64,000 nucleotides of DNA, taken from positions 32,001-96,000 of IMG/VR virus record IMGVR_UViG_3300028364_000018, one strand, 5' to 3'. Shown piece after piece: positions 1-27,362 of this stretch (positions within the stretch are counted from its first letter, which is position 1; every line of letters starts with the position of its first letter). A model generated the notes under the pieces. It was not told the origin of the DNA. It was given only the letters and a program-made list of their open reading frames with translations, and made no database searches. The position numbers were made by a program, and so were the translations under genes. The DNA is from a virus.

Positions 1-56
1 ACGATCTGCTAGGGGAGAAAGTTGGCGGGTTCCCCTCTATCTGGTTCGAAGTTGGC

Positions 57-395
57 GTGTTTGCGCTGGCCATGGACCAACAATTAGCAGGCGAGTGGAG
101 CATAGGAGCCCGGGAGTTCATAGATGACGTAATGGAGCTGACCCGCGATTGGATAACCCTCTGTCTGATGAACGGGACCTTCGTTACCTTCGACCACCTA
201 TGGGATACACGCCTGGAACGTTTTAAGGTAGTGGTAGAGAGTACCACGACCTTGACGCATACAGTCTGGCCCTTAGCACCCAGAGGGGACGTGTCACAGG
301 CACGGGCCTTGGCGTTGAAGGAGGTGCGGGACACCTGCGGAGCTCTAGCTAATCTCAGGGTTGTAGAAGTCAAGAGGGCCGCAGGTCGACCATGA
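57..395 (+). CDS. hypothetical protein (start uncertain)
   Basis: 112-aa ORF from the track; its stop overlaps the ATG at 392. Confidence 0.45.
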   Translation: MFALAMDQQLAGEWSIGAREFIDDVMELTRDWITLCLMNGTFVTFDHLWDTRLERFKVVVESTTTLTHTVWPLAPRGDVSQARALALKEVRDTCGALANLRVVEVKRAAGRP

Positions 396-523
396 AAACC
401 TATAAAACGATGGATAGCCTTCTAAGGCGTTTGGCCTACAAAGGTCGGTCGAAGAAGTGGGAAAGGCGCAGAACGAAGAAAGCAACAAGATTACCCAAGG
501 ATAAACATGCAGTACGTAGTTGA
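392..523 (+). CDS. small basic hypothetical protein
   Basis: Hand-translated MKTYKTMDSLLRRLAYKGR... (43 aa); ATGA coupling to the upstream ORF. Confidence 0.35.
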   Translation: MKTYKTMDSLLRRLAYKGRSKKWERRRTKKATRLPKDKHAVRS

Positions 524-797
524 GATAGATAAATTGGACGACTCATTAGAGGCCTCGTATGTAGCTCGTAAACGGGGGGAGGTGGGGGGCACCTACCGCT
601 CTGAACACCCGATGGTGTTCCGTAATCAGAGCGTGGCATCCAAGGTTCGCCGTAAGTGGAATAGGCAGACAGGCACCATAGCCACGGAGCGACCTTATGA
701 CGCCCTGATACATCCGAACGTGGTGTTTGAGAAGGTGGTGGAGTTGGACCCCTATAGATTTGTTAAAACTGAAAAACAAATGGAGAAAATTAAATGA
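507..797 (+). CDS. hypothetical protein
   Basis: 96-aa ORF with AAGGA SD; coupled to the next ORF. Confidence 0.6.
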   Translation: MQYVVEIDKLDDSLEASYVARKRGEVGGTYRSEHPMVFRNQSVASKVRRKWNRQTGTIATERPYDALIHPNVVFEKVVELDPYRFVKTEKQMEKIK

Positions 798-979
798 CAA
801 TATTATGCTTTTGCCCCTCGTGTGACCGCATCTACGCAGATGAAGACTTTTGCATAGATTGCACATATGAAGGTCATCCAGATGACGACGTTGAGCTTGA
901 GGTTATAGGTGACTTTTCTTCCGAGCAACTAATCAACGCAAAAGCTGGCGGGATTGCCGACACAAAGGAGAACGTATGA
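794..979 (+). CDS. small CxxC...CxxC zinc-ribbon-like protein
   Basis: CPSC and CIDC motifs; ATGA overlaps at both ends. Confidence 0.6.
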   Translation: MTILCFCPSCDRIYADEDFCIDCTYEGHPDDDVELEVIGDFSSEQLINAKAGGIADTKENV

Positions 980-1206
980 AAAATGAGAACGATAAAAGCA
1001 ATTCCGCTGATTTTATGGTTGAAGTAAACGCAGATGACTTAATATCTGTTTTGCGCGGGATCACTCAAGGGAACTATATGGAGTTTTTAGTTGCCCAAAA
1101 CTACTACATCACAACAGGCCAGCACTCTTCGGTGCAGTCACTCATGGAGGCGTGGGTTAAGCACAACGCCGAAGTCCACCGGATCGACGAAGGAGAAGAG
1201 GCATGA
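976..1206 (+). CDS. hypothetical protein ending in an attC-like element
   Basis: 76 aa, GGAG SD; C-terminal HNAEVHRIDEGEEA is encoded by the repeat. Confidence 0.6.
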   Translation: MKNENDKSNSADFMVEVNADDLISVLRGITQGNYMEFLVAQNYYITTGQHSSVQSLMEAWVKHNAEVHRIDEGEEA

Positions 1207-1598
1207 AAAATGGAAACACTGCCTCAGATTGGATGGATGCGACAAAATCCGCGCCGCCAAGAAACAATGAATTTGAGGTTCTTCACTTCGGAGACCTTGC
1301 CGAGAAACATTGGCTAATCCAAAAGGGGAAATGGGATGAGTTTGGATTTTGCGGGGTGGAAAATGAGGAAGGTGAGCACTGCAAAGTTTCTACAATTACC
1401 CACTGGCGCATTTCTAACGAAGAGTTAGCGGGACGTGATTCTGAGCGTTCCGCTGATTGTATTATTGAAATACCCCCAAACCAAGATCGGTCATACGTTG
1501 ATTTATTAGATGCTATAAAACGCAATCCTTTTATGTTTTCGCCCAACTCCGACTTGTGCGGATCGACGAAGGAGATTCGCACGGAGGACTCGTTGTGA
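1203..1598 (+). CDS. hypothetical chimeric protein reading through one element and ending in another
   Basis: 131 aa; contains SNEELAGRDSERSADC. Confidence 0.6.
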   Translation: MKNGNTASDWMDATKSAPPRNNEFEVLHFGDLAEKHWLIQKGKWDEFGFCGVENEEGEHCKVSTITHWRISNEELAGRDSERSADCIIEIPPNQDRSYVDLLDAIKRNPFMFSPNSDLCGSTKEIRTEDSL

Positions 1599-1618
1599 TT
1601 ACAATCGAGGAATACAAA

Positions 1619-2083
1619 ATGAAAAACTGGTATGAAGTCCATGAAGATCGTCGGAATTATCACGGCAACGGAAACGCAAATGGTTGTACCAATCGTTTCC
1701 ACACAGGGCAGTACGAAACTGCCGAAGAGGCGTTTGAATACGTCGAGAAAAGTAGAGGTTATGGATTTCACCGTCTTGTGGTGGTAAAATGTTCGGCTGA
1801 AATAATTAACGCAGAGATAGCGGGACGCGATTCTGAGCGTTCCGCTGATTGTCTGGTTGAAACGGATTACAGTAATGCCGTTGAACGTGCAACGAGGGCT
1901 GAAAACATATTGAGCCGTTTACTGTCAGGATTTTGGGTCCACATGATGAACGAAATTGCACCCGAGGAGGCAATGGGTGATCAGGTAACGGCATACTGGG
2001 AAAAATATAACGCCGAAACTGACCGGATCGACGAAGTAGATTCGGGCGAGGGTCTTGTTGAGACTAAAAAGGATAAGTCATGA
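1619..2083 (+). CDS. hypothetical chimeric protein reading through two elements
   Basis: ATG at 1619 with GAGG SD; contains INAEIAGRDSERSADC. Confidence 0.6.
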   Translation: MKNWYEVHEDRRNYHGNGNANGCTNRFHTGQYETAEEAFEYVEKSRGYGFHRLVVVKCSAEIINAEIAGRDSERSADCLVETDYSNAVERATRAENILSRLLSGFWVHMMNEIAPEEAMGDQVTAYWEKYNAETDRIDEVDSGEGLVETKKDKS

Positions 2084-2343
2084 GTCACCCTGAACCAAAT
2101 AATATCCATGACAGCTTACTAAACTGTGTGGCTTTTTGCTCCCGCGATTGGTCGCAGAACAAGCGGGACGCATGGATTTATGGAATAGTTTGCGGGTGGG
2201 AAGACGCCATAGAAGACGTGGCCCAAGATCATAACTGGACTCCTGAAGCTGTTAAACGCTTAGAGATGCTTCACGAGCAGTTCGAAGGCCTCAACACCGA
2301 ATTGGCTGGATCGACGAAGGAGAAGAGGCATGAGTCTGGTTGA
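2080..2343 (+). CDS. conserved-looking phage hypothetical protein
   Basis: 87 aa; SRDWSQNKRDAWIYGIVCGW segment. Confidence 0.65.
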   Translation: MSHPEPNNIHDSLLNCVAFCSRDWSQNKRDAWIYGIVCGWEDAIEDVAQDHNWTPEAVKRLEMLHEQFEGLNTELAGSTKEKRHESG

Positions 2344-2361
2344 AAATGATGGAGGTAAATT

Positions 2362-2709
2362 ATGAAATCTATTTATGACAAAAAAGGGAGACCTATCCAC
2401 GTTGGTGATGTAATTAAAATCTACCATTTTACTGCGGCTTTAAGGCGTGAAAAAAACTACATGTACAAACATGTTAAATCTATAACCGAATATGATTTTG
2501 GCACTATGTACGTCCTAGACCATTTGGAAGAAGATCCAAAAACATTTGCGGTGAGAGCAGAGGGTGAAATTGTCCCACATTGGGAAGTCATTCAGGGATT
2601 TAACGGAGGCCACTTTAGCGAGAGACGAAAGCTCAACGCCGAAGTCTGCGGATCGAGCCATAGCGAAGACTCGCCCAATTGTCTGGTTGACCATAAGGAC
2701 GGTGAATGA
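2362..2709 (+). CDS. YopX-like hypothetical protein
   Basis: DKKGRPIHVGDVIK N-terminal pattern and WEVIQG near the end; GGAGGT SD. Confidence 0.5.
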   Translation: MKSIYDKKGRPIHVGDVIKIYHFTAALRREKNYMYKHVKSITEYDFGTMYVLDHLEEDPKTFAVRAEGEIVPHWEVIQGFNGGHFSERRKLNAEVCGSSHSEDSPNCLVDHKDGE

Positions 2710-2843
2710 TGCAATATAAAATCATTACAGCATTCGGCGTTAACCGCCTTGAGACTTTAGTGCGGAGGTGTTTGGATAAAGGCTGGATACCTAAAGGCGG
2801 ACCTTTTGTCCTCGGTGTGGAGATACTCCCAGAAGCCATTTAA
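2706..2843 (+). CDS. small DUF1737-like protein
   Basis: Hand-translated MMQYKIIT...LDKGWIPKGG (45 aa). Confidence 0.45.
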   Translation: MMQYKIITAFGVNRLETLVRRCLDKGWIPKGGPFVLGVEILPEAI

Positions 2844-2901
2844 GTACCTAACAGTGTTTGGAAGTGTTAAAATTAAACACAAAATAAAATACAAACAGGG
2901 G

Positions 2902-2930
2902 TTGACAGTATCGCAATAAGTATGTAAGGT
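2902..2930 (+). promoter_or_regulatory. sigma70-type promoter for a leaderless transcript
   Basis: TTGACA-N17-TAAGGT, then 6 nt, then ATG at 2937. Confidence 0.6.
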
Positions 2931-2936
2931 ATAACC

Positions 2937-3080
2937 ATGAATCAAGTAAAAAGAATGATGAGCTACCCCCGACGCATGTTCGAGCGCCTAACCCGGTTTT
3001 CGAACCACACAGGTCTGGCGCTGACAGAGATAGTCCGCCGGGCTGTTGATGAGTACCTGGATCGTAACGAAGTAAAATGA
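2937..3080 (+). CDS. ribbon-helix-helix (CopG-like) DNA-binding protein
   Basis: Hand-translated MNQVKRMMSYPRRMFERLTRFSNHTGLALTEIVRRAVDEYL (47 aa); ATGA overlap with tnpB. Confidence 0.7.
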   Translation: MNQVKRMMSYPRRMFERLTRFSNHTGLALTEIVRRAVDEYLDRNEVK

Positions 3081-4459
3081 AAGTCACACGCATCATAAAC
3101 GCCGAACCTAATCAGGCCTTGCTACCTATATGCAAGGCCACAGCGTTTATGCGTGCTGACATCTGGCGGCGTTACGGCGCACTAGGCACAGCCGGTAAAA
3201 GGTTGAACACCGTAAAACCCGAGCTGCCTGCGTTGTACAAGTACCTAGATCTGGACGGTACGATTCGGGCAGAGACTGCCAAAGACGTACTCAACGATAT
3301 ATACTCATACAAAGAGGCGGCCAAGGAGAGGGTGCGAAAGTCTGTTAGGAAGAGGGCCGAGACCGACGAGGAGTTGAAACGGTTGTACACCCTGCTTAAG
3401 AAAGATGAGTGGTTGGACGACAACTTCCTACACCGGCAGATGCGTAAGCACTTCAAGCACGGCGTAGCCCATTGCGCGAATCAATTTGTGGTTCGTAGTG
3501 ATAGGGTGCTGACCGAGGTAGTGGAAGGGCGCCTAGTTGTAATCCTAAAGATTGCACCAAAATACGGGAACTCTATAAGGCTGACTACCACAACAAGTGG
3601 TAAGAACGTAGACCTCAAGGGCTCGAACCTGCGAGTAATTGTGAAAGATACGGGGGTGGAGATCCACTACTGCGCAGACAAACAACCCGGACGAGCGCCA
3701 GGAGTGGGTAAGATTGGGGTGGATAAGGGTTACACTGAGGCGTTTGCCGATAGCCGGGGAGGTCTACACGGACAGGGTTTCGGGCAGACCATGACCAAGT
3801 TCAGCGACCGGGTTAAGGAGACGGGTAAGTCCCGTAACAAACTCCGCGCGTTGGAGGAGAAGCACCGGGAAGCCGGTAGGGTGGCTAAAGCAGACCGGAT
3901 TAATAAAAACAACTTAGGAAATAAGAAGATTGAGAGACGAAAAGAACGGACACAAAAGAGACTGCGGACAATCGCTTTCAAAGCGGCTCACGCAGTTGTT
4001 GACCATGCCTCCCATGTGGGAGCAGAAGATTTGAGTTCTCCGATATGCTCCAAGCATAAATGGAGGAATTACAATCGGAGAATGAGTTCCTGGGCCAAAG
4101 GCGTTTTAGCCGAGGCATTGGAAAACGTCACGCAACAGCGTGGCTCGAAGTTACAGCTTGTTGCTTCGGCCTACACATCGCAAATTGATTCACAGACGGG
4201 CTTGCTGGAAGGCCAGCGCGTCGGGGATCGGTTTTACCACGTAAGTGGGGATGTCAGTCAGGCCGACACCAACGCTGCACGAGTGATTGAGCGACGGATG
4301 GATGACCCGGAGATAGGGCGTTACACGCCCTTCAAAGACATCCGTCTGATACTACTCAATCGCTCTCCGGCGCAACTGAGCGTCAATAGGGTCGAGTTGG
4401 GATCTTTGGATCGTCAACCGACTGCGGATAAACTCAATGCGCACTTATACGCATACTAA
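3077..4459 (+). CDS. tnpB: TnpB-family RNA-guided RuvC endonuclease
   Basis: IGVDKG (RuvC I), AEDLS (RuvC II), AYTSQ and ADTNAA (RuvC III). Confidence 0.85.
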   Translation: MKVTRIINAEPNQALLPICKATAFMRADIWRRYGALGTAGKRLNTVKPELPALYKYLDLDGTIRAETAKDVLNDIYSYKEAAKERVRKSVRKRAETDEELKRLYTLLKKDEWLDDNFLHRQMRKHFKHGVAHCANQFVVRSDRVLTEVVEGRLVVILKIAPKYGNSIRLTTTTSGKNVDLKGSNLRVIVKDTGVEIHYCADKQPGRAPGVGKIGVDKGYTEAFADSRGGLHGQGFGQTMTKFSDRVKETGKSRNKLRALEEKHREAGRVAKADRINKNNLGNKKIERRKERTQKRLRTIAFKAAHAVVDHASHVGAEDLSSPICSKHKWRNYNRRMSSWAKGVLAEALENVTQQRGSKLQLVASAYTSQIDSQTGLLEGQRVGDRFYHVSGDVSQADTNAARVIERRMDDPEIGRYTPFKDIRLILLNRSPAQLSVNRVELGSLDRQPTADKLNAHLYAY

Positions 4460-4476
4460 ATGAGGCAGGATTCAGC

Positions 4477-5058
4477 ATGACCATATTCTTCGCGTCCGAC
4501 ACCCACTTCGGACATAAAAACATTGTGGAGCTTGGGGAGGGTAAACGCCCGGGGATCTGCTCGGAAGAGCATGACGAGATTCTAGTAAACAACTGGAATC
4601 GACAGGTGCCCAAGAAGCGTTCAGTCACGTATCTCCTCGGAGATGTCTCTATGTCCGCTGAGGGCTGGCACCACCTAACCAGGCTCAATGGAGATATCCG
4701 GATAATACTGGGCAATCATGACGACCGTTGGCTAGACCACCAGGGCATCCGGGACTTGGATAAGTGGTTGCCAGCTAACATCCAGCTCGAGCCTGTCAGC
4801 CTCCTACGCTACAAGCGTATGTGGTTAAGCCATTGCCCGATCCACCCGGACGAGATGCGTAAGTGCCTATGTAACATGCACGGACACATCCATAATCACG
4901 TTATTGACGACCCTCGGTACATGAATGTCTGTATGGAGCAACTGCCCGGCTTCTGTCCTATATCATTGGATGATGTACGGGCGGAGTTCCGCCGACGCGG
5001 GATTGAGTTGATGAGCGAGAAGTGGCAGGCTCTCCAAGGAAGTTTAAGTGCCAAGTAA
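4477..5058 (+). CDS. calcineurin-like metallophosphoesterase
   Basis: SDTHFGH, LGD, GNHD, SHCP and HGHIH motifs. Confidence 0.9.
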   Translation: MTIFFASDTHFGHKNIVELGEGKRPGICSEEHDEILVNNWNRQVPKKRSVTYLLGDVSMSAEGWHHLTRLNGDIRIILGNHDDRWLDHQGIRDLDKWLPANIQLEPVSLLRYKRMWLSHCPIHPDEMRKCLCNMHGHIHNHVIDDPRYMNVCMEQLPGFCPISLDDVRAEFRRRGIELMSEKWQALQGSLSAK

Positions 5059-6477: not shown

Positions 6478-7275
6478 ATGAGTATGATCGACGAATTAGA
6501 AAAACAACTGCGAGAGCTCCGAAAGAAAGGAGAGGAGCAGGAGAGGCTGGATCTGGAAGAGGCAGTCAAGCCCTACATGAAACGCAGTTTCGTAGTATCC
6601 GGACCTTCTAGGAATCTGGATACTGTTCGGGTGGACCACGGGCTTATCAAGCTCAAATCATTTAAGCAGGATAAATGGAAGAACCTGGCCGTAGATGTCA
6701 GTATCAAGTATGTCGACTTCGCCGTTTCCCGATCCGGCCACAACCCGTTCGTTAGAAATGGGTTGTACACCCGGACTGACACTTGCAGCTTCTGTTTGAG
6801 TGATTGGAAGTCTTTCATCAGCGAGCTTGGCGACGAGGTAAGTAGCAGTGTGTTCGACCGGGTATTCCGGACAGTGGATGACCTCGGGTTGCTGGCTTCC
6901 CAAGAACTATGGGAGAAACACGGGTTGGAGACACTGGAGCAGAACGCAGGTCTCGTCGCATCAGAAAGTCGCAACTCCCTTGTTTGTAAGAAAAAGATGG
7001 CGTTGGACATACCGCATATCCAACTGGTAGGGGGCGACTCCTCTTACCTAGGCGGGGATTCTAACATCTTTATCCACGGAGATCTATACCTCATTAGCCG
7101 CGGCAGTCTGGAGCTGGCAGAGGAGCACCTAATCAGAAAGAGCGGGTTTGGGCTGAACCTAGCTACTACGAATCTCCTGGATGGAGAATACGGATACCTT
7201 GAACGCAGATCCTCAGACGTTAAGAGTTTGCGTGCGAGATTACAGGAAGCCGGTAAACAATTAAATAAGGATTAA
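6478..7275 (+). CDS. hypothetical protein
   Basis: 265-aa ORF with coiled-coil ends. Confidence 0.65.
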   Translation: MSMIDELEKQLRELRKKGEEQERLDLEEAVKPYMKRSFVVSGPSRNLDTVRVDHGLIKLKSFKQDKWKNLAVDVSIKYVDFAVSRSGHNPFVRNGLYTRTDTCSFCLSDWKSFISELGDEVSSSVFDRVFRTVDDLGLLASQELWEKHGLETLEQNAGLVASESRNSLVCKKKMALDIPHIQLVGGDSSYLGGDSNIFIHGDLYLISRGSLELAEEHLIRKSGFGLNLATTNLLDGEYGYLERRSSDVKSLRARLQEAGKQLNKD

Positions 7276-7276
7276 G

Positions 7277-8548
7277 ATGAAAGAATTACAGATTAAATGT
7301 CCGATTTGTGAGCAGTCGGGCGGGATCGAAGAGGTTTTGGTCAACGCGGTGGTGGTGACGCGCATGACGTTGCGGGAGGATAGCGACGGAGAGTTGGAAC
7401 CCGTGTACGAGCACCACAACGTGCTCTCAAGCGATGTAGAGCGCTACCAGTGCTTTTTCTGCGGTGGATTTCTGGCCGCTGATATGGAGAATCTCAAGGA
7501 GTTGGCGAGGGAGAATACCGAACTCACAACAAAGGAAAAGATGAATTTTAAACTAAACAAGAGCGGGGGTTGGATCATTCCCGCTGATACGCGCATCGAA
7601 CGTGACTGCGTTATACCCGCCCACAGTCAGCTTGGGGATGAGTGTGAGCTCGGGGATGAGTGTAAGCTGGGAGCGTGGTGTAAGCTGGGAGAGAGGTGTA
7701 AGCTGGGAGCGTGGTGTAAGCTTGGAGATGAGTGTGAGCTGGGAGTGGGGTGTAAGCTGGGAGAGAGGTGTAAGCTGGGAGAGGGGTGTAAGCTGGGAGA
7801 GAGGTGTAAGCTGGGAGCGTGGTGTAAGCTTGGAGATGAGTGTAAGCTTGGATATGAGGGTGAGCTGGGAGCGGGGTGTAAGCTGGGAGCGTGGTGTAAG
7901 CTGGGAGCGTGGTGTAAGCTGGGAGCGTGGTGTAAGCTTGGAGATGAGTGTGAGCTGGGAGAGTGGTGTGAGCTGGGATCGGGGTGTGAGCTGGGAGCGG
8001 GGTGTGAGCTTGGAGAGAAGTGTGAGCTTGGAGCGTGGTGTAAGCTTGGAGCGGGGTGTGTACGGCCGTTTAAGGGACCTATGCTCAAGTTAGTAGCTAC
8101 GGAGCTTGACGAGGACCTGGAAGTTCCTGAAGATATCAATTGGTCTATGTACGGACCCTTTATAAAGATGCATCTTGTTGAGGCGGGGCTAACCGAAGAG
8201 CAGGCAGACAGCGGTATAGCTCGTAGGTCGTTCTTAGCAAGGGCAGCGTTAGCGGGGTACTTGAGTAAAACCGAACCCAAGGTTAGTCAGAGGATAAAGG
8301 AACTTAGGCGGGAAACCAAGACCGCGGCAGAACAACTGGTTGAGACCGTGAACGTCACGGGCGGCCTAACACACCCACCAGCTGGCGGACCCGCAATTCA
8401 CGACTCTTGGTTGGACTTGGGCGAGGCTTATTTACAGGCATGCGCCGAGTTGGGCGTCGAACCACAATATGAGGAACAAGATGAACATCGAGGAACACCA
8501 GTTAGCGAACATGAGGAAAACCATCATAAACCACTGCGCCGAAACTAA
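7277..8548 (+). CDS. multi-part protein: zinc ribbon, hexapeptide repeats and C-terminal domain
   Basis: CPIC...CFFC, then about 24 LGxxCx hexapeptides. Confidence 0.7.
   Translation: MKELQIKCPICEQSGGIEEVLVNAVVVTRMTLREDSDGELEPVYEHHNVLSSDVERYQCFFCGGFLAADMENLKELARENTELTTKEKMNFKLNKSGGWIIPADTRIERDCVIPAHSQLGDECELGDECKLGAWCKLGERCKLGAWCKLGDECELGVGCKLGERCKLGEGCKLGERCKLGAWCKLGDECKLGYEGELGAGCKLGAWCKLGAWCKLGAWCKLGDECELGEWCELGSGCELGAGCELGEKCELGAWCKLGAGCVRPFKGPMLKLVATELDEDLEVPEDINWSMYGPFIKMHLVEAGLTEEQADSGIARRSFLARAALAGYLSKTEPKVSQRIKELRRETKTAAEQLVETVNVTGGLTHPPAGGPAIHDSWLDLGEAYLQACAELGVEPQYEEQDEHRGTPVSEHEENHHKPLRRN
7630..8060 (+). repeat. 18-bp coding tandem repeat (LG[ADE][WER]C[KE])
   Basis: Units such as CTGGGAGCGTGGTGTAAG repeated back to back. 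Confidence 0.95.
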
Positions 8549-11025: not shown

Positions 11026-11308
11026 TAGTAAACCCAACTTACGTGGCAGACCGCAGCATCTGATAATGCTGGATGATCAGAGTTTTGTGACATCAACGAA
11101 CCCGAGGAAAAAGATGAGTATATTAAACAGACTGAGAATGTGGTGGACCAACTTTGGTACAACCGACGAGGCGCAGCGCGAGGTTCTGATCAGCACCCAG
11201 ACCAACCCTATTGAGGATCGTCTAAATGGAGGTGCTTTATGAGCATGAGCGATTGTGGTAGATGCTGGAGCGCCCCCGAGAAGCACCAAGCTAAATTAAA
11301 GGAAGAAT

Positions 11309-15791: not shown

Positions 15792-16844
15792 CTATTGAAC
15801 CGAGTATAAAGCAGGAGGGCTATAAACTCCCCTGTTGCGAATGTTGATGGCTGCGTTTAAATCCGCATCCATACGATTATCACAAGCAGTACAAGCAAAG
15901 GCTTTCCCCTTACGGGAGGCCCGGTCTTGTACGCCGCACGCACTACAGGTCTGAGAAGTATAAGCCGGGTTGACCTTCGTAAAGGTCAACCCAGCTTCTT
16001 CACAAACAGATGCTAGCTTGCCCAAAACCTTTGGGTACGACCAGCGCTGTAGTTTGTTATTAAATTTCTTACTCATCTGCCCTCTGGATTTGTGCTTGAC
16101 CGACTTCAGGTCTTCAACCACAACCTCCCGTACCCCCGCCAAGTCCAACTTATTCACCACCCGGTTAATCAGGTTATCCCTCTCTGTCAGCGCCCGCTTG
16201 AAGGCCTGGGAGCCTTGTTTCTTACGTGCGATCTTTTCGTATTGAGCTTCAAGTTCCTGCCCATGCTCCACTCCTTCGGAGTCTGCGAGCAGCGTCTTGT
16301 AACCGCAATCATAACCAACGGACTTACCTTTCTTGACAGGAAGGGGCTCTACCTTCTCAGCATAAAGGTCCAAGTAATACCTATCCCCGGCCTTGCGTAG
16401 CCGGGAGCTCTGCTTGATTAAAAACCCTTTGTCCAGCAGGTCGAGCATATGACGATGCTTACGGCTAGGAAGATTTAGTATAATCTTAGATCCAAGACAG
16501 GAGAGTCTAAACCACACATCATATGAGTTTTGATCAAGTTTTATGTCTAAGAACCTAGCATCTAAGTTTATGGTCTTGCGTGTTAAGGTCGGTTTAGACT
16601 TCTTGCGCTTCTTACGTTGCGACTTAACGATCTCCAACGCTTGCTTACCCAGAGCCTGCTGTAATCGCGCGGATAACCATGTTGGGACTTTATAAGTAAC
16701 GAACTTGGAAGAAAAGTCCCGCTCATCCCACAACCTGTCAATAAACAGATTCACAACTTTAACCGACTCTTCCAGCACCCGGTCAAGCTCCAGTAGCTTT
16801 CCATGGTTGGAGTCTGCCAGATTAAATTGTATACGTCTAATCAT
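15792..16844 (-). CDS. tnpB: IS607 TnpB RNA-guided endonuclease
   Basis: GYDCG, VVEDL, AYTSQTCSAC, CTAC and DADLNAA; RuvC D-E-D triad intact. Confidence 0.9.
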   Translation of the reverse strand: MIRRIQFNLADSNHGKLLELDRVLEESVKVVNLFIDRLWDERDFSSKFVTYKVPTWLSARLQQALGKQALEIVKSQRKKRKKSKPTLTRKTINLDARFLDIKLDQNSYDVWFRLSCLGSKIILNLPSRKHRHMLDLLDKGFLIKQSSRLRKAGDRYYLDLYAEKVEPLPVKKGKSVGYDCGYKTLLADSEGVEHGQELEAQYEKIARKKQGSQAFKRALTERDNLINRVVNKLDLAGVREVVVEDLKSVKHKSRGQMSKKFNNKLQRWSYPKVLGKLASVCEEAGLTFTKVNPAYTSQTCSACGVQDRASRKGKAFACTACDNRMDADLNAAINIRNRGVYSPPALYSVQ

Positions 16845-17406
16845 TACTAAGCTCTTTTATTAATTTTTCCGTTTTTCGCTTAGTTCTTCTAAGTCCGTAA
16901 AGTCTGGCACAAAAAGAGGTGACTAAAGACACAAAGTCTTGCATCAGATCTTGCTTGTCGTCCTCTACCTTATTGACCACCACCAATTCTGCATTACGCT
17001 CATCCATCAATACTTCAAGATACTTAAACCCGAACCTTGTTAGCCTGTCTTTATGCTCTACAATGATGCGCGTGTAAGTCGGATCTTTTAATAACCGCAG
17101 TAACTTAGGTCTTGCATCATTTAACCCGGAGCCCACCTCTTTTACTACAGCATCAACACCCCAACCTCTCGCGTTAGCGTATGCGACGAGTCTGCTGGCC
17201 TGCCCTTCTAAGTTAGATTCGTTCTGCGAGGAGCTAACTCTAGTGTAAATAGCAGTTTTTTCCGGGCGTTGTGGTGCATCCTCCGGTATAAGAATCTTAC
17301 CTAGGTCATCCTTAAACGCGCCGGGTATTTTGCCAAGGTTAAACCTGTTCCACGCAGCTCGGTACTGTATACCGTGCTGTTTTGCATATTTACTTAGTGT
17401 CAACAT
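16837..17406 (-). CDS. tnpA: IS607 serine-recombinase transposase
   Basis: N-terminal HTH, IYTRVSS, EVGSGLN and HKDRLTRFGF. Confidence 0.92.
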   Translation of the reverse strand: MLTLSKYAKQHGIQYRAAWNRFNLGKIPGAFKDDLGKILIPEDAPQRPEKTAIYTRVSSSQNESNLEGQASRLVAYANARGWGVDAVVKEVGSGLNDARPKLLRLLKDPTYTRIIVEHKDRLTRFGFKYLEVLMDERNAELVVVNKVEDDKQDLMQDFVSLVTSFCARLYGLRRTKRKTEKLIKELSND

Positions 17407-24791: not shown

Positions 24792-26009
24792 ATGGCTGAC
24801 AAAGACTTAAAATTCATTCAAGAAAATGTGGACGGACTGTTTGAAGAACGCACAGTAACGCCCGTATCCGGACAGGCGTTGATGTTTGACTCAGAGGGGT
24901 TTCCCGTGAGTGGAAATGCCGCTGAACCTTTCACCCTCCACGACGTAACCAACGCCCAACGCCTCGCAGGAACACGCAACGACGACACCACGCCTCTTGT
25001 CGCTGGTGACACGGTGCGGGTGACTGACCTGCCTGATGACCCGATCATGCTTATGCTGGGTACTGGTGATTGGACTACGATTTCAGAGCCGTTACAGATG
25101 CCATATTTCACGGCCCATACTTTTGTAACAACCGCAACGGATACGGTAGAAGCTTACAACGGAGATATCCCCGACGACTTTGCTTCAACAAATAGTTTAG
25201 GAAGCGCAAAAGCCCTTTCTTTAGGTAATTCAGTTACATCTATTGGCAGTGAGGCTTTTTATAATTGCTCAGGATTTACAGGATATTTAAATATTCCTGA
25301 TTCCGTTACATCTATTGGAAATAATGCTTTTAGGAGTTGCTCAGGATTTACCAGTTTAACAATTCCTGATTCAGTTACAACAATTGGAAATAATGCTTTT
25401 AGGAGTTGCTCAGGATTTACCAGTTTAACAATTCCTGATTCAGTTACATCTATTGGAAGTTATGCTTTTGCTGGTTGCTTAGGATTAACAGGAAGTTTAA
25501 CAATTCCTGATTCCGTTACATCTATTGGAAATAATGTTTTTGCGTATTGCACAGGCTTCACAGGAAGTTTAACAATTGCTGATTCAGTTACAAGTATTGG
25601 AAGTTATGCTTTTTATACTTGCACAGGATTTACAGGAGATTTAAATATTCCAGATTCAGTTACATCTATTGGAAGTAGTGCTTTTTGGGGTTGCACAGGA
25701 TTTACAGGAGATTTAAATATTCCTGATTCAGTTACATCTATTGGAGGTCAGGCTTTTCAGGGTTGCTCAGGCTTCACAAGTTTAACAATTCCTGATTCAG
25801 TTACATCTATTGGAGGTGGTGTTTTTAGGGATTGCACAAACCTTACAAACGTAAATTGCTATGTAACCAAAACTATATTTAATCAAAGTAATGTTTTAGC
25901 AGGAACAGGAGTTACAACCTTACACGCCCTTGCAAGTGATGGAACATGGACAGCAGGTGCCGACACAATTGGTGGAAAAGCATTAACAGTAATTAAGGAT
26001 TTGGTGTAA
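24792..26009 (+). CDS. BspA-type leucine-rich-repeat (LRR_5) protein with a fiber-like N-terminus
   Basis: About 9 LTIPDSVTSIGxxAFxxC repeats. Confidence 0.9.
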   Translation: MADKDLKFIQENVDGLFEERTVTPVSGQALMFDSEGFPVSGNAAEPFTLHDVTNAQRLAGTRNDDTTPLVAGDTVRVTDLPDDPIMLMLGTGDWTTISEPLQMPYFTAHTFVTTATDTVEAYNGDIPDDFASTNSLGSAKALSLGNSVTSIGSEAFYNCSGFTGYLNIPDSVTSIGNNAFRSCSGFTSLTIPDSVTTIGNNAFRSCSGFTSLTIPDSVTSIGSYAFAGCLGLTGSLTIPDSVTSIGNNVFAYCTGFTGSLTIADSVTSIGSYAFYTCTGFTGDLNIPDSVTSIGSSAFWGCTGFTGDLNIPDSVTSIGGQAFQGCSGFTSLTIPDSVTSIGGGVFRDCTNLTNVNCYVTKTIFNQSNVLAGTGVTTLHALASDGTWTAGADTIGGKALTVIKDLV

Positions 26010-26010
26010 T

Positions 26011-26808
26011 ATGAAAACTGTTCATTATACATCGGGACTTCCGAGAGCTTGCTCCAGCCTCCTCCAAAACCTCCTTGCCCAGAATCCTCAAGTCCATGCC
26101 ACGGCCACAAGCGGTGTGCATGAGATAGGGTATATCGCCCGTGGGTTCTTTGACACGGAAGAGTTCAAGACTTTCAAGAACCCACTTGACGGAGAACAGC
26201 AATACTATGACTTCCTCCGTGGCGGTATTCAATCCGCTTTCGACTCCCGTACAGACAGACCGATTGTGGTTGATAAGTGTCGTTCGTGGGTGGGGCACCT
26301 AGACCAACTCTTCAAAGTCTTTCCCGATGCAAAGGTGCTTGTTCCTGTTCGTGATGTCCGTGGAATCCTGACTTCCCTTGAGAAGAAACGAGCGCAACAC
26401 CCTTCACGATTTACGGGAGTGGAAAAAGCTAACCCGCAAAACTGGACGACCGTTGAAAAGCGGGCACAAGGTTGGCTTTCGATCCCACCCCTTTCAATCG
26501 CTCTTGAGCGCATTCATGATGCGGTGCGTACCCATAAAGGCAGGCTTCACTTTGTACACGCTGAAGACCTGACAAACGATCCACAAGAAACGATGAACAA
26601 GGTCTGGTCGTATCTGGGGATGGATCCATTTGTACACAACACCAATAACGTGGAACAATACACCACCGAACATGAGCTTGGATTCCCCTATGGGGACCAT
26701 AAAATAAGACCCAAGATCGAACCGCTTAAAAAAGAGTGGAACGAGGTATTGGGCAGAGATTTATCAAGCGCAATCGCAACAAAATTCCAATGGATAAACG
26801 AATTATGA
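26011..26808 (+). CDS. sulfotransferase-family protein
   Basis: SGLPRACSSLL, VDKCRSW, VRDVRGILTS and VHAEDL. Confidence 0.85.
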   Translation: MKTVHYTSGLPRACSSLLQNLLAQNPQVHATATSGVHEIGYIARGFFDTEEFKTFKNPLDGEQQYYDFLRGGIQSAFDSRTDRPIVVDKCRSWVGHLDQLFKVFPDAKVLVPVRDVRGILTSLEKKRAQHPSRFTGVEKANPQNWTTVEKRAQGWLSIPPLSIALERIHDAVRTHKGRLHFVHAEDLTNDPQETMNKVWSYLGMDPFVHNTNNVEQYTTEHELGFPYGDHKIRPKIEPLKKEWNEVLGRDLSSAIATKFQWINEL

Positions 26809-27362
26809 AATACGCAATAACAGGACCAAGAGGACGGATATTTAATATCCTAGACGAAGAACCGCAACGGGAGCATTCTTCTCTTACGGACGAACAAGCG
26901 GTGCAAGCCTCCGAGGGTATCTGGTTCATCGTCGAAGGTGAGTTAAAAACACAGGCGGAGTTCCGTGTAGTGGCACAGGCACAGAGACAGGCTGAACGCA
27001 TGACTGAGCTGTATGCTCAAGACCCGGCCCAAGCCAAGGCACACAAACGCCAAGCGCTATCGGATGCACGCTACCAAGCGGAGATAGGAGGCACGACCTT
27101 CAACGGCATCCCCCTCCGCACGGACAGGCAGACGCAGGCAACGCTCACAAGCGCGATGCTCTTTGCGCAAGCCGATGCAAACTTCACGACTGACTGGAAG
27201 CTGGGCGATGGGCAATTTATCACGCTGGATGCCGCGACTGTCATCGGCCTTGCGGGTGCGGTTCTCTCCCATGTGCAGACGCAATTCACGCGGGAGAAAG
27301 ACCTAAATGCCCTTGTCGATTCCGCGACTACCGCCGAAGAACTTAACACCATCACTTGGTAA
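26805..27362 (+). CDS. DUF4376-like tail-fiber-associated protein
   Basis: RYQAEIGG...TDRQTQA...WKLGDGQF.TLDA...HVQTQF.RE. Confidence 0.75.
   Translation: MKYAITGPRGRIFNILDEEPQREHSSLTDEQAVQASEGIWFIVEGELKTQAEFRVVAQAQRQAERMTELYAQDPAQAKAHKRQALSDARYQAEIGGTTFNGIPLRTDRQTQATLTSAMLFAQADANFTTDWKLGDGQFITLDAATVIGLAGAVLSHVQTQFTREKDLNALVDSATTAEELNTITW

Follow-up and report, generated by a model that had tools for sequence, protein, structure and literature searches.

Short hairpin elements as apparent in-frame joints between small genes of a phage cassette array

The gain and loss of small accessory genes by phages, anti-defence genes among them, takes place at gene boundaries, and it is an old question whether this depends on linker sequences or on random joining followed by selection. 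The stretch of DNA analysed here (the window; 64,000 nt, bases 32001-96000 of the IMG/VR virus record IMGVR_UViG_3300028364_000018) raises this question at an array of small genes joined by eight copies of one hairpin element (window positions 932-2697). The original prediction, made from the sequence alone, described these repeats as attC-like sites in an integrase-less array of small cassettes and as in-frame joints between the genes. The integrase-less cassette array and the in-frame joints are both upheld; the elements are not canonical attC sites. Judged from the sequences of this array and its relatives, the elements appear to be coupling or fusion joints in one fixed reading frame and to mark the places at which cassettes are exchanged.

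The full record (G000) is linear, 122,487 bp long and 63% complete by CheckV estimate. It codes for multisubunit RNA-polymerase-like proteins and other genes of large phages. By exact-protein look-up, the same phage is present in three further metagenome samples, in which the array is 100%, 100% and 99.94% identical over the stretches compared.

The element, its helix and its reading phase

The eight copies span 1.8 kb and all lie on the + strand. A profile built from them (nhmmer) gives exactly eight matches in the 122-kb record, all within window positions 925-2705 (E 7e-6 to 6e-15), and no further copy elsewhere in it. A covariance model built from 26 family members recovers seven of the eight and nothing else in the window. 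The six elements originally described as complete were recovered, at the predicted positions, by repeat search, by the profile and by the covariance model. The repeat search also recovers the repeat families that had been named: positions 1181-1206 are identical to 2308-2333 (26 nt) and positions 1422-1460 are near-identical to 1814-1852. The peptides shared between proteins and the ATT that stands in place of GTT at 1464 are likewise present in the sequence.

Relatives were gathered by pattern scans of IMG/VR and metagenomes, followed by a profile filter. Element arrays are present in three further virus records (G001, G002 and G003) and in six short fragments (L281, L307, L320, L322, L347 and L369). 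Both G001 (40.5 kb) and G002 (40 kb) are complete, with terminal repeats, and G003 is a close relative of G001. By profile search, there is one array per virus record, and 80 unrelated phage loci used as a negative control (1.14 Mb) contain no profile match. The nucleotide similarity of the window array to other contigs is limited to the elements (75-90% over 45-94 nt). Apart from one common gene module, G000, G001 and G002 are unrelated. The shared module suggests a common host or gene pool for all element-carrying phages. In the window, this module (24792-27362) encodes a BspA-type leucine-rich-repeat protein, a sulfotransferase and a 208-aa protein, with 81-92% protein identity to the G001 genes; the sulfotransferase is 61% identical to that of a G002 gene.

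Two more junction elements lie outside the main array of G002, one found by the covariance model (L378 10926-10991) and a more diverged one found by eye (~11090-11140). One of the two joins two small domains in frame. The element family is therefore broader than the profile detects.

Wider searches gave no further arrays. Window positions 700-3100 have no blastn match among 50,697 phage records. At gathering scores, Rfam finds only two tRNAs in the window and nothing on the elements, and a permissive Rfam scan of 700-3100 gives nothing credible (best E 0.036, 19 bits against a gathering score of 40 bits). Relatives sought through the downstream phosphoesterase gene match at 50% identity or less, and none has an array. 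A 19-base element pattern matches 116 positions in 596 Gb of bacterial and archaeal genomes, none of which passes the family profile. These 116 matches are best read as chance, and a bacterial copy of the scanned element subtype was not found in these genomes.

The anatomy of the element was taken from an alignment of 26 short-loop family members. An invariant AAC, mostly followed by GC, is succeeded by 7-8 variable bases, a 10-bp helix that encloses a loop of 8-13 nt, 8 variable bases and a GTT. The GTT is nearly invariant and lies mostly within TGGTTGA; its three columns are conserved in 25-26 of the 26 aligned copies. The size of the element is 53-60 nt, with ~55 nt as the usual value, and the loop can expand to ~40 nt. 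In the majority of full copies, AAC and GTT are 48 nt apart; a separation of 47-51 nt is typical, and large-loop copies have 83 nt.

The original prediction that most copies enclose an imperfect hairpin is correct as to the hairpin and understates it for the family, in which the 10-bp helix is backed by covariation. In the alignment, 89% of helix cells are paired, and both sides have changed in 7 of 11 pairs. The covariation score is 0.355 compared with 0.147 in shuffled alignments, none of which (0/500) reaches 0.355. When the partner strand is slid by 1-3 columns, pairing is 43% or less. The same ten pairs are given independently by RNAalifold. Three central pairs (G-C, G.U and A-U) never vary, and the outer pairs covary. 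The helix is continuous and contains no bulged bases. Its only asymmetry is the invariant G.T pair, which is an A/C mismatch on the opposite strand; as a G.U pair, it gives the sense strand the better fold of the two in 23 of the 26 copies. Single copies from the window fold no better than shuffles.

Pairing between the outer AAC and GTT was considered as a further covariation-supported helix and rejected, as RNAalifold gives the structure without it. Both triplets are invariant, so the alignment permits no conclusion on their pairing. The positions next outward from them are mostly unpaired (alignment position 2/61 is unpaired in 19 of 26 copies).

The reading phase of the element is constant. 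In 35 of 35 family members, the AAC is an in-frame Asn codon of a long upstream open reading frame (ORF). This ORF stops 13-32 codons past the AAC in 29 members, and the stops fall at few and fixed sites: in the loop, directly past the 3' arm, in the 3' box, or ~7 codons behind the 3' box. Nearly all of these stops (25/29) are the TGA of an RTGA overlap (ATGA or GTGA) with the next start, with a ribosome site ahead of it. At the level of sequence, the element is thereby shown to supply the predicted last 13-32 codons of the upstream gene, a putative ribosome site and the RTGA overlap for the next gene. Since this overlap falls at a few fixed places, neighbouring genes would be translationally coupled in any order. 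The other six copies contain no stop, and two gene bodies are fused in frame across them.

The AAC is present in all 35 copies although AAC makes up only 38-63% of the Asn codons of these phages, and the GTT is nearly invariant although GTT makes up only 16-23% of their Val codons. Among the copies, two frames are used to read the middle of the element, and paired changes preserve the helix and alter the residues. The constraint therefore appears to act on the nucleotides, not on the peptide.

Cassette exchange in related arrays

Breakpoints at the conserved AAC and GTT triplets, as the proposal of shuffled cassettes implies, are found when related phages are compared. Between G001 and G003, the flanks of the array are 98-99% identical on either side; the arrays themselves contain different cassette sets and differ by breaks at elements. 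One cassette of ~215 nt (L051 5234-5443) is present in six contigs with 0-1 substitutions. The identical stretch is preceded by three different element ends, with its left edge at the upstream (G)TT, and stops at the AAC(G) of the downstream element, beyond which there are five different hairpin bodies. A second unit, composed of an element and its downstream gene, stands behind three different cassettes with its edge at AAC. The gene of this unit also stands behind another element, with the edge at GTTGA.

The order also differs. In G001, an element of type b precedes the cassette and a type-a-like element (a') follows it; in G003, a precedes the cassette and b follows. These permuted arrangements could be explained by an excised circle that re-enters at the other box. 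The G001 array also contains an internal joint that connects its last part to its first (L051 3553-3616 = 4649-4712; 4491-4658 = 6581-6748). Such a joint would be left by a tandem duplication or by a re-inserted circle.

The gene bodies appear from their sequences to be ordinary autonomous genes. The body at window positions 2080-2295 belongs to a family of stand-alone proteins of 68-113 aa that have no element-coded tail, and a complete DNA methyltransferase domain (E 6e-74) makes up one gene body of a related array.

For the old question of how phage genes are joined, the element family offers a concrete joint, with a defined structure, invariant end triplets, a fixed phase, a built-in stop-start signal and natural recombinants that can be read to the base. 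The fixed phase would be a natural scheme for plug-and-play operons and protein fusions.

Possible mechanisms and related systems

The reading that is considered most likely, though only tentatively, is structure-directed recombination at the base of the hairpin by an enzyme. The hairpin would fold in single-stranded DNA, and recombination would be directed to its base, in principle as at attC sites. The stem has no bulged bases that would impose a choice of strand, so both strands of the site seem open to use. The enzyme would be provided in trans. The array would then work like an integron cassette array with a built-in code for reading frame and coupling, without being a canonical attC array. 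If an enzyme does act on the element, integron-like recombination would be extended to lytic phages in a new form. It is possible, but doubtful, that the elements constitute an exchange system separate from integrons, in which symmetric hairpin sites recombine at both ends (AAC and GTT) and the gene bodies and joint bodies shuffle independently. In such a system, the fixed phase and RTGA coupling would make any cassette order expressible and would allow combinatorial fusions, and the recombinase would be either new or borrowed from the host.

Several observations weigh against structure-directed recombination. The recombinases of the phages do not point to a common enzyme. The integron-integrase model TIGR02249 matches nothing in G000-G003, and the search for IntI that the attC proposal called for thus gave no integron integrase in the four phage records. 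Neither tyrosine nor serine recombinases are encoded by the complete 40-kb G002. A tyrosine integrase is present in both G001 and G003, and the NCBIfam matches of the G001 copy are weak and of Xer type only. In G000, 63% complete, there is no tyrosine recombinase and no Y1 transposase (no PF01797 match; control genomes do match), and the one serine recombinase, located beside a TnpB-type gene 14 kb from the array, looks like part of an IS607-type element. No recombinase is common to the three unrelated phage lineages. Some breakpoints are also irregular. One context of the 215-nt cassette breaks a few bases before the AAC and continues into unrelated sequence with no element, and an ATGA alone marks the edge of one cassette. 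In two upstream elements, the arms belong to different subtypes; such chimeric hairpins indicate that crossovers also occur inside the element, and general homologous recombination would yield the same result. Both the invariant G.U pair and the superior folding of the sense strand would also fit an mRNA hairpin. No close relative of the window phage with a differing array was found, and the three other samples carry the same array; exchange is therefore demonstrated for the family only.

The main rival, which is likewise possible but doubtful, is that the elements are passive joints similar to the promoter-early stem-loops (PeSLs) of T4-type phages, with the hairpin kept for a role in mRNA, such as in translational coupling, in stability or in the binding of a protein from host or phage. 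As co-infecting phages have them in common, they would also serve as portable homology for general recombination or for copy-choice at a polymerase stalled at the base of the hairpin, with no dedicated recombinase. This agrees with the sense-strand folding and the invariant G.U pair, with ribosome sites and starts that lie in the loop or abut the 3' arm, with the chimeric hairpins and with the lack of a shared recombinase. PeSLs are documented regulatory motifs that mediate modular shuffling and form mini-circles (PMC2839356), and the near-identical gene module of the three lineages makes it probable that one gene pool was available to them. However, the homology at the joints amounts to only 4-5 bases (AACG or AACGC) or to GTT and a few more, which is very short for homologous recombination, and there are at least four such joints around a cassette that has 0-1 substitutions in 215 nt. 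Passive joints also leave unexplained why the hairpin is kept in read-through copies, where coupling is not needed, and why AAC and GTT are invariant though they lie outside the helix.

Two further readings were considered. That the element is a selfish miniature hairpin, REP- or MITE-like or derived from an IS200/IS605 end, that inserts at gene ends, possibly aided by TnpB, is improbable. It would account for a hairpin with conserved single-stranded flanks, for the TnpB-like gene directly downstream of the array (3077-4459), and for the AAC-to-GTT distance of 48 nt in most full copies, which is a whole number of codons. However, the record has no Y1 transposase, and the arrays of the other phages have no TnpB nearby. 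A constant phase in 35 of 35 members does not fit free insertion, for which at least two phases stay open, and relatives differ in the neighbours of genes, not in the presence of an element within fixed synteny. It is very improbable that a conserved peptide (a linker, a tag or a polyprotein protease site) is under selection and the DNA repeat is its by-product. The constant phase is consistent with this, as are the residues N-A-(E/K) and (L/M)-V-(E/D) that recur, respectively, where the peptide begins and ends, but the middle is read in two frames with a freely variable peptide, paired changes keep the helix and change residues, and most copies hold a stop inside or just past the element. In addition, the third positions of AAC and GTT never vary, contrary to phage codon usage. 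Intein-like, translational-bypass and RNase III-site readings were dropped: the peptide ends are inconsistent, the frame stays open through most copies, and the fused ORFs would not survive cleavage.

Integrons are among the closest known systems. Integrase-less clusters of attC sites (CALINs) are present in virulent phages, several of them with methyltransferase cassettes, and IntI1 recombined five of six tested phage attC sites with attI1 (Qi et al. 2023, PMC9892861). The attC proposal was therefore reasonable. On this reading, the elements would be true attC sites, which an integron integrase of the host would move by way of the folded bottom strand, crossing over at G|TT only. The two kinds of array share small promoterless genes in one direction, palindromic sites of 50-60 nt (53-60 nt here) that begin with AAC and end with GTT around a central palindrome and a variable loop, and cassette edges at these triplets, with the left edges of shared cassettes at (G)TT. 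Both also include methyltransferase cassettes, as in the published phage CALINs (PMC9892861), and have no integrase adjoining the array. In size and end triplets, the elements agree with attC sites, which are about 55-140 nt long with a conserved AAC on the 5' side and GTT on the 3' side.

A canonical attC array is nevertheless unlikely. The boxes are off consensus: RYYYAAC is present in 5 of 29 copies and GTTRRRY in 1 of 29, and the complementarity of the ends averages 4.3 of 7 positions, three of which are the invariant triplets, so that pairing extends over ~4 bp. Extrahelical bases are absent, the spacers that stay unpaired are longer (~8 x 8 nt), and it is the sense strand that folds better. 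Unlike attC sites, the present sites are located within ORFs, which read through some of them, always in the same phase, and they bear stop-start signals. Exchange takes place at either end of the site, for gene bodies independently of hairpin bodies. Left edges are at (G)TT, yet cassettes do not bring their own downstream site along: five bodies stand behind one identical gene. In the array of Pseudoalteromonas phage H101 (PH101 in PMC9892861), the attC sites are intergenic, and one site read by eye combines a bulged stem with short spacers. The family model gives no match to these validated sites, and none of the 116 pattern matches in bacterial genomes is a true copy.

In behaviour, the closest analogue appears to be the PeSL. 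Like the present elements, PeSLs are short stem-loop motifs between small non-essential genes of a hyperplastic region, at which unrelated genes are exchanged, and circular intermediates can account for permuted arrangements (PMC2839356, PMC4122927). PeSLs differ in being intergenic and in consisting of a sigma-70 promoter and a terminator, whereas the present elements lie within coding sequence and set frame and coupling. A promoter scan of window positions 1-5000 gives 4 sites compared with 5.1 expected; one touches an element (a weak 9-of-12 match at 1576-1605), and none recurs across copies. Terminator-like sites are below the chance count, and only the copy at 1423-1458 is followed by a T-rich run.

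The start-associated sequences (SAS) and extended SAS (ESAS) of Cluster K mycobacteriophages are also repeated, at the translation starts of a subset of genes, and the ESAS is an imperfect inverted repeat with a variable spacer; their function is unproven and has been linked to translation initiation (PMC3203893). Unlike the present elements, these motifs precede the starts and do not form part of the reading frame of the gene before them, and no gene exchange at them has been reported.

Rickettsia palindromic elements are palindromic repeats located in frame inside protein-coding genes, a feature that they share with the elements described here. They interrupt a single gene and are scattered over the genome, whereas the present elements connect distinct genes within a single array and contain stop-start signals. 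Rickettsia palindromic elements are mentioned in PMC10969869. A published description of joints that stand in one fixed phase and carry a stop-start overlap was not found in the literature.

The copies in the window and neighbouring genes

The cassette genes of the window form a chain on the + strand (794-2843) made up of ORFs 794-979, 976-1206, 1203-1598, 1594-2083, 2080-2343, 2362-2709 and 2706-2843. ORFs 1203-1598 and 1594-2083 each hold two gene bodies. No Pfam families are found in the genes of this chain. The G+C content of the array is 0.44-0.46 compared with ~0.52 for the rest of the genome.

The first two copies had been described as half-elements, which holds only in part. The copy at 932-1029 is a whole element with a ~40-nt loop. 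Its AAC is at 935-937, its arms at 953-962 and 998-1007, and its 3' box at 1015-1022. The loop holds a Shine-Dalgarno sequence, the upstream stop and the next start, with an ATGA overlap at 976-979. The covariance model matches this copy over positions 1-62 of 62 (E 1.9e-4), and a hairpin scan gives a 12-bp stem. The same large-loop layout is seen twice more in contig L117, with stems of 12 and 16 bp. The copy at 1162-1245 is probably a decayed element of this type, with a 5' box, a 5' arm and a loop that contains a ribosome site, and with the 3' box lost. It has an ATGA overlap at 1203-1206, and by eye 8 of the 10 stem pairs can form with a weak 3' arm (1224-1233). The profile finds its 5' part (E 6e-7); the covariance model does not find it.

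Two of the next three copies are read through. The copy at 1413-1475, inside ORF 1203-1598, has a stem of 10-14 bp, a 3' GTT decayed to ATT and a fold z of -2.7. The copy at 1805-1867, inside ORF 1594-2083, has arms at 1818-1828 and 1837-1847, GTT at 1856-1858 and a fold z of -3.45. Between them, the copy at 1542-1604 (1542-1603 by the model) is a variant one base shorter; its upstream ORF ends in a GTGA overlap, and the next start is at 1594.

In the copies at 2006-2068 and 2632-2697, the upstream ORF stops 24 codons past the AAC, in an ATGA overlap (2080-2083) in the former and in an overlap with the start at 2706 in the latter, which has a 13-nt loop. The copy at 2290-2352 (2290-2350 by the model), one of the six originally counted as complete, is a chimeric element with no 3' arm and matches the model weakly (30.9 bits). 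Its ATGA at 2330 opens an ORF of 11 codons that ends in an ATGA overlap with ORF 2362, which amounts to an empty joint.

A gene for a 460-aa RNA-guided nuclease of the TnpB family (3077-4459) lies directly downstream of the array and is overlapped by a gene for a 47-aa ribbon-helix-helix protein (2937-3080). A strong sigma-70-like promoter, recognised by eye (TTGACA, 17 nt and a -10-like hexamer), heads the ribbon-helix-helix gene; the promoter and both genes together occupy window positions 2880-4459. The adjoining TnpB-type gene was rejected as a partner of the array, as TnpB is absent from the surroundings of arrays in the other phages. Another gene of the TnpB family (15792-16844) and a resolvase-type serine recombinase gene (~16885-17253) are located on the - strand in an IS607-type arrangement. 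Within ORF 7277-8548, positions 7626-8000 give many staggered blastn self-matches and represent a tandemly repeated coding stretch.

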